The notes under the pieces were generated by a model. It ran no database searches and had not been told where the DNA came from. It saw only the letters and a list, made by a program, of their open reading frames with translations. DNA of 64,000 nt, from the NCBI GenBank assembly GCA_041653955.1, contig JBAZEH010000001.1:53342-117341 (forward strand), written 5' to 3'. Made by a program: the position numbers and the translations under genes. The stretch is from Candidatus Omnitrophota bacterium (GTDB taxonomy: Bacteria; Omnitrophota; Gorgyraeia; Gygaellales; Profunditerraquicolaceae). Numbering within the stretch: position 1 is the stretch's first letter; every line of letters begins with the position of its first letter. Positions 4,459 through 50,143 of this stretch are shown here, one piece after another.

Positions 4459-4532
4459 GGGACGGTTCTCGTGCTAATCGGAAAAGTGTCCCTACTAGGG
4501 GACACTTTTCGCTTTGTCAGCAGAACCGTCCC
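4459..4532. repeat. REP doublet (nested palindrome, BIME-like), copy A. Arms are GGGACGGTTCTC ... GAAAAGTGTCCC / GGGACACTTTTC ... AGAACCGTCCC.
   Basis: Same architecture as copy B at 6569-6642 and as the two halves flanking the RAYT gene at 47565-47599 and 48147-48181. Confidence 0.8.
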
Positions 4533-6568: not shown

Positions 6569-6642
6569 GGGACGGTTCTCAAGTCAATCGTAAAAGTGTC
6601 CCTTCTAAGGGACAGTCTTTGCTTTGGCTCCAGAACCGTCCC
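6569..6642. repeat. REP doublet (nested palindrome), copy B, between rnfE and rnfD. The inner arm has diverged to GGGACAGTCTTTGC.
   Basis: GGGACGGTTCTC at 6569-6580 and AGAACCGTCCC at 6632-6642, with inner arms GTAAAAGTGTCCC / GGGACAGTC. Confidence 0.8.
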
Positions 6643-13099: not shown

Positions 13100-13171
13100 T
13101 GCCGAGGGAGGGAATCGGACCCCCCACGCCGGCCTTTTCAGGGCCGCGCTCTACCACTAAGCTACCTCGGC
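13100..13171 (-). tRNA. tRNA-Phe (anticodon GAA). No encoded CCA.
   Basis: GCCGAGGTAGCTTAGTGGTAGAGCGCGGCCCTGAAAAGGCCGGCGTGGGGGGTCCGATTCCCTCCCTCGGCA; anticodon stem CGGCC/GGCCG, loop CTGAAAA, discriminator A. Confidence 0.8.
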
Positions 13172-13337
13172 TAAATCTTTTTGTTGGTGAATCCTCTGTC
13201 GCCCCGCCTTCACCTGCTTACCGCGGGCCATCGGAGGAGCTAGCTACCTCGGCTAAATCTTTTTGTTGGCGAATCCTCTGTCGCCCCGCCTTCACCTGCT
13301 TACCGCGGGCCATCGGAGGAGCTAGCTGCCTGGGCTA
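13160..13337. repeat. 82-bp direct tandem repeat, about 2.2 copies with 1 mismatch. The first copy begins with the 12 nt at the 5' end of tRNA-Phe.
   Basis: Copies at 13160-13241, 13242-13323 and a partial third at 13324-13337. Confidence 0.8.
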
Positions 13338-40230: not shown

Positions 40231-40311
40231 AACTTACACAACGTTAGTGAACGTAAGTTATTTGCGCGAATTTACCTCCCACCTTATTAATAACCATAAA
40301 AGGGAGAAAGG

Positions 40312-47564: not shown

Positions 47565-48181
47565 ATTATATCAGGGACGGTTCTCACACTAAAGCAAAAA
47601 GTGTCCCCTTTTTACAGTTAGATATGCGCATTACATGCGTCTATTGTAACAGGAGGTGATAAATATGCCAAGAGAAGCCAGGCGTCTTCTGGAAAATGTG
47701 TGTTATCACATATTATCCAGAGGCAACCAGAAACAGAGAACATTTTTTAAAGAAGATGATTATCTCATGTATCTTGAATTGCTTGGAAAATATAAGGTGA
47801 AATTCAAGTTTAAGCTATATGGATTCTGCCTGATGCCAAATCATGTGCATCTAATGGTAGAGCCGCGAATACCCAAAGATATATCAAAGGCAATAGGAGG
47901 ACTGAATCTCTGCTATACCCAGTGGTTTAATAGAGAATACAATAAAGTAGGACACCTTTGGCAGGATAGATTTAAAAGTTTTATAGTAGCAAAAGATCAA
48001 TATCTTATTAATTGCATAAATTATATAGAGTTGAATCCCATCCGGGCTGAAATTATCCACGACCCTATGGAATACAAATGGAGTAGTTATAGGTCAAGAT
48101 TGACCGGAGATAAAAGAAAGCTATTAGATAAACTAAATATTTTTTAGGGGACACTTTTCCGATTGGCGCGAGAACCGTCCC
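47565..48181 (+). mobile_element. REPtron: a RAYT gene flanked by two inverted REP halves (left 47565-47599, right 47147-48181 region i.e. 48147-48181). Together the halves equal one full nested-palindrome copy split by the gene.
   Basis: Left GGGACGGTTCTC ... AAAAAGTGTCCCC; right GGGGACACTTTTCC ... GAGAACCGTCCC. The RAYT stop TAG is the first 3 nt of the right REP (TAGGGGACAC). Confidence 0.8.
47656..48147 (+). CDS. REP-associated tyrosine transposase (RAYT / TnpA_REP, IS200/IS605 Y1 HuH family).
   Basis: HuH motif NHVHLMV and catalytic Tyr region NYIELNPIRA; 163 aa. Confidence 0.85.
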   Translation: MINMPREARRLLENVCYHILSRGNQKQRTFFKEDDYLMYLELLGKYKVKFKFKLYGFCLMPNHVHLMVEPRIPKDISKAIGGLNLCYTQWFNREYNKVGHLWQDRFKSFIVAKDQYLINCINYIELNPIRAEIIHDPMEYKWSSYRSRLTGDKRKLLDKLNIF

Positions 48182-49974
48182 TACCATTCTAATCTTACTC
48201 CGGCCTCAATCCAGCGGCCGGGCTGCGGTATCCCCTCTATCTCCTGATATTCCACGTTCAGGATATTGGTGGCCTCTAAAAATATCTGGGAATTTTTGAG
48301 AAAACCATATGAAAGGCGGGAACTTAAAAGCAGCCACCCGCGGCGCGAAGGCCTCTTTTTATAAGTTACGCCTATGGACTGCACGCCGAAGGGAAACTTA
48401 AAAATAACGGCGTTATTTACCAGATGCTTTATATAATTAGGCCCGTACTTATAAAGATAACCCTGGTCATCCACGCGTTTATTAATGAATGAGTAGTTGG
48501 AATCAACCGATATGACAGGATTTATCCTGAACCTCAAATAATTCTCCATCCCAAATACCCCGGCTTCGCCGATATTCTCCACCTGCCACTTTGCCTGGTA
48601 GGATGAGCGTTTTACCCAATCAATAAGGTCTTCTTCCCTCCTATAAAATAGCGTAAACCCGAACGACAAACCACCCTCTTTATAATCATAACCTGCCTGG
48701 TAATTAAGCGATTTCTCCGCGGAAAGGGAGGCATTCCCGAGCGTCACGGGGTCATTGTAATAAAGTTCCGTAAAGGAAGGGACACGCGCGCTCCGGGATA
48801 CCCCCGCGTGCACAAAAGAGCGGTTTGAAAGCTTATACCTGGAGTTTAGCGAACCGGAGTATATCTCGTCGAAACCTTCAAAATTGTCCATGCGCAGCGA
48901 TAGCCCTAAAGACAGGCTCTCGTCCAATTCTTTGCTATCGTCAAAGAATATACTTTCATGCCTGCGCATATGCCTGCCTAAATTAGTTGAATTTATCCTC
49001 TCTTCTCCGTATTCCACCCCCGAACCTGCCCTCCCTAAAATACCGAGCTCTTTCTGCAGGTATATCTTCGGAGTATATATATCTGTGCGGTGATGGTTAA
49101 GGTAAGAACTCTTACCCTGGGTCTTATCCAGCGCGAATTTATCATAGTGCCTGCGCCATAAGAAAGAAGGCCTTATGATGAGTCCGTCTTTATCCAGATT
49201 CATCCCGGTATTTAAGAGATAAGTCTTAATCCACTCTTTTGAAGGATAATCCAGGCCGGGAGTGTAGAAATCATAAGCCCCGTACTCCTTCTCCTGATAG
49301 CCGAAATTAAGATCGATCCCCCCATCAGGAATATCAAAAGATGAATTCAAGGTAGTGGTAAATTTTTTGAAGTCGGTATCATAGCTAAAGCCATCAGACT
49401 CCTGATTTTCCAGGCTAAGCCTTACGCCCAGCCTATCGGTTTTCTCGCTTATGCTGAATAACCCGGAGAATGTGCGATGCTCCCCTCCCTTTAATTCCAG
49501 GACCGCCCCCTTATCCTCTGGTTTCTTAAGGGTGATATTTACCGCACCTCCCATTGCATCAGGCCCGAACAATGAAGAACCTGCCCCGGGAAGCACTTCA
49601 ATCCTTTCTATATCCTCGCTGGTAAGCGGTATATCGCAATTATAATGGGCTGTCTGGGGGTCATTTATGCGCTCTCCGTTCAAAAGCATAAGGACCCCCT
49701 GGAAGGTGGAGCCACGCAAAGAAAAATCACTCTGTATGCCCCCTTTGGGAGAACGGCTCGCCAAGTCTAAAGGCAATAAATTGAGGGACTCGACAGGCGA
49801 CCCAAAAGGCAGGCCCTTTGAATCTTCAGCGGATAAAGAAAACGGCCTTAAAAGATGGTACCTGCTTTTGGTAACGACTATCTGTTCAAGTTCTGTCCCG
49901 CAATATGCCCGGCCGAAACAAGAGGCGGCCGCGGCAACCAGAAAAAATAAACCGCCCTTTCCTGCATTTAACAT
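48181..49974 (-). CDS. TonB-dependent outer-membrane receptor.
   Basis: Signal peptide, plug region, beta-barrel length and C-terminal aromatic residue (… VRLEW). The stop codon abuts the right REP. Confidence 0.7.
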   Translation of the reverse strand: MLNAGKGGLFFLVAAAASCFGRAYCGTELEQIVVTKSRYHLLRPFSLSAEDSKGLPFGSPVESLNLLPLDLASRSPKGGIQSDFSLRGSTFQGVLMLLNGERINDPQTAHYNCDIPLTSEDIERIEVLPGAGSSLFGPDAMGGAVNITLKKPEDKGAVLELKGGEHRTFSGLFSISEKTDRLGVRLSLENQESDGFSYDTDFKKFTTTLNSSFDIPDGGIDLNFGYQEKEYGAYDFYTPGLDYPSKEWIKTYLLNTGMNLDKDGLIIRPSFLWRRHYDKFALDKTQGKSSYLNHHRTDIYTPKIYLQKELGILGRAGSGVEYGEERINSTNLGRHMRRHESIFFDDSKELDESLSLGLSLRMDNFEGFDEIYSGSLNSRYKLSNRSFVHAGVSRSARVPSFTELYYNDPVTLGNASLSAEKSLNYQAGYDYKEGGLSFGFTLFYRREEDLIDWVKRSSYQAKWQVENIGEAGVFGMENYLRFRINPVISVDSNYSFINKRVDDQGYLYKYGPNYIKHLVNNAVIFKFPFGVQSIGVTYKKRPSRRGWLLLSSRLSYGFLKNSQIFLEATNILNVEYQEIEGIPQPGRWIEAGVRLEW

Positions 49975-50008: not shown

Positions 50009-50143
50009 CTAAATTATATATTAAGGTTTACAATATGCTAATTAACGCCTTTTATGTATATTAATAAGGTTTGGCGTGAGTTCGGACGCATAAGTTATGT
50101 CGATTAGCCAGGCTAATGAAATTCCCATAACTTATCTCCTCGC

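Follow-up and report, generated by a model that had tools for sequence, protein, structure and literature searches.

We analyzed a 64,000-nt stretch of DNA from a Candidatus Omnitrophota bacterium (assembly GCA_041653955.1, contig JBAZEH010000001.1, positions 53,342 to 117,341; hereafter, the window), in which a short gene for a Y1 HuH transposase is located between two inverted copies of a 34-nt repeat unit, and two gene-free doublets of the same unit are found elsewhere. The explanation that we favor, with a probability of about 0.8, is that this is a single-copy, core-only Y1 enzyme of the TIRYT (tyrosine transposase associated with terminal inverted repeats), subclass 2.1 or Group 1 type, encoded between the arms of its own 34-nt substrate, and that the gene-free doublets are non-autonomous elements mobilized in trans. 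The arm-by-arm match of flanks and doublets links the repeat family to the transposase gene, as a sequence-only reading of this DNA had proposed. The features involved are the following (positions are those of the window):

47574-47607, + strand: upstream 34-nt unit, GGGACGGTTCTC-loop-AAAAAGTGTCCC, with a CTAAAGCA-type loop, like the - arms of both doublets
47618-47647, + strand: conserved leader boxes, TTAGAT, 18-nt spacer, TATTGT; promoter-like by sequence
47651-47656, + strand: Shine-Dalgarno sequence AGGAGG, 8 nt upstream of the transposase ATG
47665-48147, + strand: Y1 HuH transposase gene, 160 aa plus TAG; HVH at 47842-47850, YIELNP at 48022-48039, stop at 48145-48147
48148-48181, - strand: downstream 34-nt unit, inverted, with a CCAATCGG-type loop; its inner end abuts the transposase stop
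4459-4532: gene-free tail-to-tail doublet between rnfB and purN; arm 4459-4492 (+), linker 4493-4498, arm 4499-4532 (-)
6569-6642: gene-free tail-to-tail doublet between rnfD and rnfE; arm 6569-6602 (+), linker 6603-6608, arm 6609-6642 (-)

The repeat search in the source DNA covered the window, which has 47% G+C. A loose scan for GGGAC-N18-30-GTCCC returned six units and nothing else, and a 12-mer search with up to 2 mismatches gave 10 matches versus 3.05 expected, a number that was reached in 0 of 100 shuffles. The arms flanking the transposase form a 37-nt, 81% complementary GGGACGGTTCTC..AAAAAGTGTCCC inverted pair, and the complete unit-gene-unit element is 608 bp long. The likeness to the doublets is arm-specific: the loop of the downstream flank (..AATCG., CCAATCGG) is that of the + arms of both doublets, and the loop of the upstream flank (..AAAGC., CTAAAGCA) is that of their - arms. 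The proposal that the flanks are the two halves of the 74-bp palindromes at 4459-4532 and 6569-6642 is thus borne out. The description of these palindromes as nested, in contrast, holds only in part. As DNA, the complete doublets fold strongly (-27.4 kcal/mol, z -8.6, for 4459-4532; -23.6 kcal/mol, z -7.9, for 6569-6642), whereas the single halves are weak, imperfect palindromes (-4 to -7.5 kcal/mol, z -0.6 to -2.9).

The same reading had placed the transposase stop at the right repeat. The TAG indeed abuts the unit, and the right arm is preceded by TAG or TAA at 3/3 window sites; it corresponds to the conserved C-T-A of the 3' flank when the strand of the unit itself is read. At the outer end, the downstream unit is overlapped by the TAG stop (48181-48183) of a TonB-dependent receptor gene, which, together with mnmA, borders the transposase gene. 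It should be noted that the outer flank TA and the first G of the unit spell TAG, the stop of the TonB-receptor gene, and that the inner flank CTA is TAG on the opposite strand, the stop of the transposase. The window contains one copy of the transposase gene. An identical protein is known from several metagenomes; the records label it a 'transposase' and assign it to a Candidatus Omnitrophota metagenome-assembled genome (MAG), and in them the gene is always located between mnmA and the TonB-dependent receptor gene.

The transposase and its class

Judged from its sequence and modeled fold, the window open reading frame is an intact Y1 HuH single-strand-DNA transposase that keeps the catalytic residues. 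The Pfam Y1_Tnp (PF01797) match has E 1e-18 and 68 bits against a cut-off of 23. The HVH motif (residues 60-62) aligns with the HMH of E. coli TnpAREP (PDB 4er8), and Tyr120 of YIELNP (48022-48024), in the catalytic position, aligns with Y115 of the same protein; H60, H62, Y120, N124 and P125 are invariant among 38 homologues. For the AlphaFold model (pLDDT 85.5), the best solved structure found by Foldseek is 4er8_A, TnpAREP bound to the hairpin of a repetitive extragenic palindrome (REP) (E 4.5e-7, TM 0.70, 162 columns), followed by the ISDra2, IS608 and IS200 transposases. The protein is 160 aa long, with the C-terminus 35 residues past the Y motif; close Omnitrophota homologues have 156-188 aa.

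To classify the enzyme, we rebuilt the published alignment of 12 REP-associated tyrosine transposases (RAYTs) and 24 TIRYTs, and scored the window protein against its members. Scores of 94-143 bits, with 31-40% identity, were obtained for 19 TIRYTs (216-255 aa), the top one being Geobacter bemidjiensis 2474 (40% identity across 159 residues); the acidobacterial TIRYTs gave 40-47 bits, and the canonical RAYTs of E. coli, Pseudomonas and Stenotrophomonas (GTAG-REP type) 15-33 bits. The NCBIfam model of the canonical REP-associated class (subclasses 2.2 and 2.5), REP_Tyr_transpos (NF047646), scored 65.2 bits, below its cut-off of 80, and the phmmer comparison with E. coli TnpAREP (4er8) was marginal (E 0.25). 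The Y---NP signature of class 2 TnpAY1, i.e., of RAYTs in the broad sense, is present as YIELNP. The motifs NHVH / WQ / YIELNP of the window protein are those of subclass 2.1, for which NHVH / W[EQ] / YIELNP are listed and which was reported to be without REPs (Quentin et al. 2018, PMC6006769), the placement being made by motif and best hits, not by the subclass hidden Markov models of that scheme. Subclass 2.1 corresponds to RAYT Group 1 (Bertels et al. 2017, PMC5581495) and to most TIRYTs (Di Nocera et al. 2013, PMC3733652).

The best annotated relatives, which come from a plasmid collection (39-41% identity, E ~1e-31), are YIELNP proteins of 230-235 aa encoded on plasmids of R. rubrum and P. 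aeruginosa, together with a Sporomusa protein of 295 aa; none of them was found in the supplementary tables of Quentin et al. Every one is bordered by inverted repeats with GGGGTCAG or GGGGACAG, i.e., with the GGGGWSAS box reported for TIRYT inverted repeats (Di Nocera et al. 2013, PMC3733652). The window locus has this box as well: GGGGACAC is found at the inner, gene-proximal end of each flank (48147-48154 and, as the complement, 47601-47608). What the 160-aa protein lacks, compared to the TIRYTs and the plasmid relatives, is a C-terminal tail of ~70 aa, the TIRYT-type extension with a helix-turn-helix-like domain (TIRYT proteins have a median length of ~238 aa). The nearest 50%-cluster representatives in a library of 1.84 billion proteins are mostly 190-330 aa long. 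The 5' GT[AG]G head of canonical REPs is also missing; in the 218 units profiled, the unit begins with GGGACGG, preceded by (T)A, and there is no GTAG or GTGG at either foot. Because of the TIRYT-like scores and motifs, the GGGGWSAS box and the absence of a GTAG head, the locus is better classed as a short-form TIRYT, or 'TIRtron', the inverted repeats of which behave like REPs and REPINs (REP doublets forming hairpins).

The sequence-only reading had called the locus a textbook REPtron, and this label survives for the layout only. A REPtron is a Y1 gene bordered by inverted copies of a genome-dispersed repeat (Ton-Hoang et al. 2012, PMC3333891), and such an arrangement is found in the window and at other loci; the protein (65.2 versus 80 bits, E 0.25, TIRYT-like) and the repeats (no GTAG head) do not fit the label. 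The two findings that, according to that reading, would have spoken against it, namely, a lack of further repeat copies and a failure of the HuH and Tyr motifs on proper alignment, did not appear: further copies exist, and the motifs align with those of 4er8.

Upstream of the gene, the leader follows the consensus TTAGAA-N18-TATT(G/A)T, CGTCTATT, AGGAGGTG, with the boxes present in 10/10 related loci and the 18-nt spacing in the 7 measured. The octamer CGTCTATT, at 47638-47645, is near-invariant among ten species (in addition to the window, L030, L034, L057, L067, L084, L095, L124-L126; L numbers denote individual loci). We infer that the boxes are a promoter-like site for the transposase gene, and the conservation of a leader of its own argues that the gene is probably expressed. 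The CGTC of CGTCTATT is complementary to the GACG of the unit foot. The octamer is conserved beyond what a -10 box needs, and could be a binding or guide site, and not a promoter element alone. Another promoter-like sequence, TTGGCA-17-TACAAT with an upstream TG (47671-47643, - strand), points to mnmA from the transposase leader; if this site is used, the mnmA 5' untranslated region would contain the upstream unit.

The repeat unit in other genomes

Scanning species-representative genomes with the pattern GGGACGGTTCT-N10-14-AAGTGTCCC, we found at least 118 stretches in at least 52 assemblies, a figure that in part reflects ascertainment by the exact pattern; by our own arithmetic, the entire collection should contain ~5 matches by chance. 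The counts in this paragraph and the next refer to the matches listed. The assembly labels were 35 Omnitrophota, 12 'uncultured Planctomycetales/Planctomycetia', 1 unclassified, 3 Firmicutes and 1 Aminicenantales. The at least 118 loci hold 220 units. All close pairs (78/78) have the tail-to-tail arrangement, with no head-to-head pair among them and a spacing of mostly 5-7 nt; ~41 units are true singles. Seven further pairs are 525-555 bp apart, and every one of these encloses a transposase homologue.

The consensus unit is GGGACGGTTCT(C/G)AA-loop-AAAGTGTCCC, preceded by (T)A and followed by CT, the invariance of its core being partly imposed by the scan pattern. Within the 34-nt unit, positions 1-5 are paired, position 6 is a G.T and position 7 a G.G mismatch, positions 8-9 are paired, and the pairing beyond is variable; the loop is 11-13 nt long. 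In the 3' flank, C is found at +1 in 68% and T at +2 in 58% of units; in the outer flank, 88% have A at -1 and 64% have T at -2. Between the two arms of one doublet, the loops show systematic differences, with an identity of only 0.14-0.38 for positions 15-16 and 20-22. Self-complementarity is greater in singles than in the arms of doublets (63% versus 19% with G at -10), and the median DNA fold is -6.6 versus -4.5 kcal/mol.

Several other properties of the repeat were considered and rejected. The counts do not support an order of the two arm types that is fixed with respect to transcription (10 to 5, p = 0.30), and, as regards carriage by phages, 2.9 million viral contigs gave one match. In the CGTC-tagged REPs, the terminal CGTC is unpaired, the stem has 8-9 bp and the loop 4-5 nt (Di Nocera 2013, PMC3733652), whereas in the present unit the paired foot, GGGACGG, includes the CGTC complement and the loop has 11-13 nt, so that the unit does not belong to that family. 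Rfam recognizes only two tRNAs in the window, and gives no match at the transposase locus even at E up to 1.

The association of gene and repeat recurs, at 12 other loci by one count. Apart from the window, the Y1 gene is located between units at 10 further loci from different species (L030, L034, L057, L067, L084, L095, L124, L126, L136 and L138 are the clear cases of two-sided flanking), and 3 more are partial or one-sided. All homologue loci examined are directly flanked on both sides, with these exceptions: at L125, there is no unit copy past the gene; at L137, the upstream copy is ~230 nt away; L104 and L106 were checked for units on one side. The 10 gene-bearing loci among the at least 118 all come from different genomes. 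The loci of homologues that were reached via the protein are unbiased with respect to the repeat. At 75, 62 and 61% protein identity, they carry the exact core; at 54-50% identity, divergence is seen in the inner stems and the GGGAC...GTCCC foot is kept, so that absolute conservation of the unit has to be rejected. Such drift of the core with the divergence of the enzyme, with the foot kept, is the pattern expected from enzyme-substrate co-evolution.

The position of the gene between mnmA and the TonB-receptor gene is kept in the closest relative, L124, in which the transposase is 75% and MnmA 49% identical. At 61-62% identity, the gene is found elsewhere, with DAO as a neighbor or between recA and cinA, and flanking units are present in every case; a fixed chromosomal position thus applies to L124 only. 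At L080 (7311-7538), a 5'-truncated, internally deleted remnant of the transposase is located beside one intact unit, a case of gene decay with the repeat retained.

Some further forms of the repeat were observed. A gene-free doublet at L059 (7769-7839) is located 78 bp upstream of mnmA (MnmA 58% identical), on the side that the transposase element occupies in the window; this locus ends 160 bp further on. In one species (assembly CAYVIU; L012, L062, L086, L093), a composite variant occurs at several loci, consisting of a full unit followed by a second copy of the 3' half only, GTGAGGAGAAGTGTCCC-AGACTT-GTGAGGAGAAGTGTCCCC. Similar 31-32-nt units with a shorter loop, GGGACGGTTCTT..GAGAAGTGTCCC, are present in Lachnospiraceae and Clostridia MAGs:

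L105: 3288-3318
L112: 1537-1567 and 1651-1681
L113: 376-407 and 1260-1291

No Y1 gene was found near these units; two of the sets are pairs within 1 kb. This hairpin type of unit may extend beyond Omnitrophota.

Doublets in the rnf operon and other repeats of the window

Comparison with relatives indicates that the doublet probably moves as a unit, because it is absent at the rnf junctions of three syntenic relatives. In these relatives (L132, L133 and L134; RnfD identity 69-73%), the gene order MFS-rnfC-(G)-D-E-A-B-purN-...-ftsH is preserved; at rnfD/rnfE and at rnfB/purN, the neighboring genes overlap or have 2 nt between them, and no repeat is present. In the window, both junctions hold a doublet, as insertions relative to these relatives. 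The native stop of the upstream rnf gene is gone, and the gene is read in-frame through one arm to a TAG in the linker. As a result, RnfD (328 aa) has a repeat-encoded tail of 11 residues, DGSGAKAKTVP (window 6605-6642, - strand), and RnfB (281 aa) has one of 10 residues (window 4495-4532, - strand). None of the other 119 RnfD homologues listed has the 11-residue tail; they end 1-3 or a few more residues past the conserved VYG. No TA duplication was seen at the two sites for which an empty-site comparison is available (left flanks GA and CA, right flanks TA and TA).

Among the matches listed in the census, 45/58 upstream gene ends fall at -42 to +16 nt relative to the doublet, and the median distance of the doublet from the upstream stop is 4 nt. 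A preference for a particular gene context was rejected (52/57 doublets between co-directional genes versus a 91% baseline in the same loci), and so was a terminator function: a consensus scan gave 4 versus 3.7 expected, with none at the transposase locus, and both doublets are intra-operon.

Two other repeats of the window were noted. At 13160-13323, directly upstream of a tRNA-Phe gene (13100-13171, - strand), there are two tandem 82-nt copies, 99% identical, each of which ends with the first 12 nt of the tRNA-Phe (GCCGAGGTAGCT). A 53-nt inverted pair (40251-40303 and 50048-50100), 74% alike and containing ACCTTATTAATA..CATAAAAGG, brackets a 9.7-kb stretch that includes the transposase locus, with one copy just upstream of the TonB-receptor gene; this pair could be a shared regulatory site.

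Alternative explanations, mechanism and known systems

The association described above can be read in other ways. The 608-bp unit-gene-unit element could be an active, autonomous insertion sequence (IS) of the IS200 type, selfish and not domesticated, with the doublets as its internally deleted miniatures. The homologues at 61-62% identity in unrelated contexts, always with flanking units, would fit such an element, and so would the plasmid location of the closest annotated relatives, the status of Group 1 as the most IS-like RAYT group and the L080 remnant, which is the intermediate expected en route to a gene-free element. However, the window has one gene copy, the 10 gene-bearing loci (of at least 118) belong to ten different genomes, and the mnmA/TonB-receptor position has been kept in a relative with 75% identity of the transposase and 49% of MnmA. 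In addition, the element has Y---NP and not Y---Q, inverted and not direct ends, and no tnpB, and we consider this explanation unlikely. We give considerably less credence to the possibility that the doublets are chiefly structural or regulatory elements of the host (terminators, mRNA stabilizers or protein-binding sites) maintained by selection, with the transposase as a domesticated maintenance enzyme. The exact 20-base pattern in at least 52 species-level assemblies, while the enzyme is 50-60% identical, the closeness of doublets to gene ends (median 4 nt, matches listed) and the TAG bounding units on both strands are in line with it. Yet the window doublets broke overlapping, presumably translationally coupled rnf junctions and added 10-11 foreign residues, which looks selfish; a terminator within an operon would be harmful, and the terminator scan showed no excess; the gene context is that of the baseline, 91% tandem in both; and the units of more distant homologues have diverged, as enzyme-substrate co-evolution predicts. 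Very improbable, in our opinion, is the third possibility, that the doublets are miniature inverted-repeat elements of a TA-duplicating IS630/mariner-type DDE transposase and that the Y1 gene landed inside one of them. Here, the TA-target-like flank (88% of units with A at -1, 64% with T at -2) and an element made of terminal inverted repeats are to be set against the lack of a TA duplication at the two empty-site comparisons, the failure to find another transposase between the repeats, and the Y1 gene found between repeats in the window and at 10 further loci, with 3 more partial or one-sided.

The explanation that we favor, an enzyme encoded between the arms of its own substrate with doublets mobilized in trans, also has points that weigh against it. 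The case for mobilization in trans is one of association. The insertions do not appear to be recent, given that the empty-site relatives are merely 69-73% identical in RnfD, and loss of the doublet in three lineages is formally still an alternative. The single units fold weakly, and the recognized structure may be either the unit or the whole doublet. Finally, the enzyme is without the C-terminal domain of its closest relatives, and its DNA recognition may differ from theirs.

E. coli TnpAREP binds the REP hairpin on single-stranded DNA only, needs a mismatch in the stem, and cuts CC/T or C/T (the slash marks the cut). By analogy with this enzyme and IS608 TnpA, the window transposase would recognize the folded unit or doublet on single-stranded DNA, e.g., on the lagging-strand template. 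Recognition may involve the invariant GGGAC/GTCCC foot together with the conserved G.T/G.G mismatch at stem positions 6-7. Cleavage would then take place at the conserved CCC/CT, in the 3' flank or the linker, with a 5'-phosphotyrosine link through Tyr120 and a metal held by His60 and His62. Religation of the ends would allow doublets to be excised and reinserted in trans.

Among known systems, the TIRYT/TIRtron is closest by sequence. The motifs NHVH / WQ / YIELNP / WSSY are common to both, the gene is located between long inverted repeats with GGGGWSAS (here GGGGACAC), and repeats elsewhere as singles and dimers have been reported for some TIR families (PMC3733652). In contrast to TIRYTs, the window protein has 160 aa versus ~220-240, without the ~70-aa C-terminal domain ending in GRPRK; the unit forms a self-complementary hairpin whose stem carries a fixed mismatch; and the doublets are strictly tail to tail, in many species, and in an Omnitrophota host. 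A literature search for 'RAYT' together with 'Omnitrophota' gave one incidental mention, and no earlier report in the phylum was found. The E. coli REPtron (TnpAREP/YafM, 4er8; REPs and bacterial interspersed mosaic elements) is the best structural match, with the catalytic Tyr and HuH aligned; its flanking inverted repeats are also found as inverted pairs, a stem mismatch is conserved, and C-T is found beside the repeat, as at the CC/T and C/T cleavage sites of TnpAREP. However, the sequence similarity is marginal, the window units lack the GTAG head and are longer (34 nt, 11-13-nt loop), and the copy density appears to be much lower than that of E. coli REPs.

With the REPIN-RAYT system of Pseudomonas (Bertels and Rainey), the window shares a two-unit doublet that forms a long hairpin and behaves as the mobile unit, as well as a cognate Y1 gene that is present in single copy with these units on its flanks. 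The properties that define a REPIN, i.e., two inverted units, a hairpin and joint movement, are seen here in the z of ~-8, the 78/78 tail-to-tail pairs among the matches listed and the empty sites. The differences are that the enzyme belongs to another RAYT group, REPINs being tied to Groups 2 and 3 only, and that the doublet arms differ systematically in the loop. IS200/IS605 elements have in common with the window the Y1 HuH fold and a small element with structured ends and no target duplication. Their defining features (Y---Q, multiple near-identical copies, direct ends and, often, tnpB) are absent from the window, which has Y---NP, inverted ends, a single copy and no tnpB. In summary, the layout is REPtron-like, the doublets are REPIN-like, and the enzyme is a short-form TIRYT with a clear REP/REPIN-like repeat population.

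These results connect a family of dispersed palindromic repeats in an uncultivated phylum with the cognate enzyme, and provide comparative evidence for the gene-free doublet as a mobile unit. They also bear on annotation, given that the repeats displace stop codons and append short foreign tails, as in RnfD and RnfB. According to two surveys, the TIRYT / 2.1 / Group 1 lineage is without REPs or has low-copy flanking words only, whereas Di Nocera et al. (PMC3733652) found some TIR families repeated as singles and dimers. A REPIN-like population in subclass 2.1 supports the latter observation: a lineage described as REP-less (2.1, Group 1) can own such a population, which blurs the line between TIRYTs and RAYTs. 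The 160-aa enzyme and its defined 34-nt putative substrate make a compact candidate for single-strand-DNA biochemistry. Tentatively, and at somewhat less than even odds, we suggest that a core-only TIRYT branch has been co-inherited with a REP/REPIN-like population across much of Omnitrophota, the core being kept in ~50 species while the enzyme is 50-60% identical. If true, this partnership of enzyme and repeat would rank among the deepest known, and would represent a minimal pair of enzyme and substrate.

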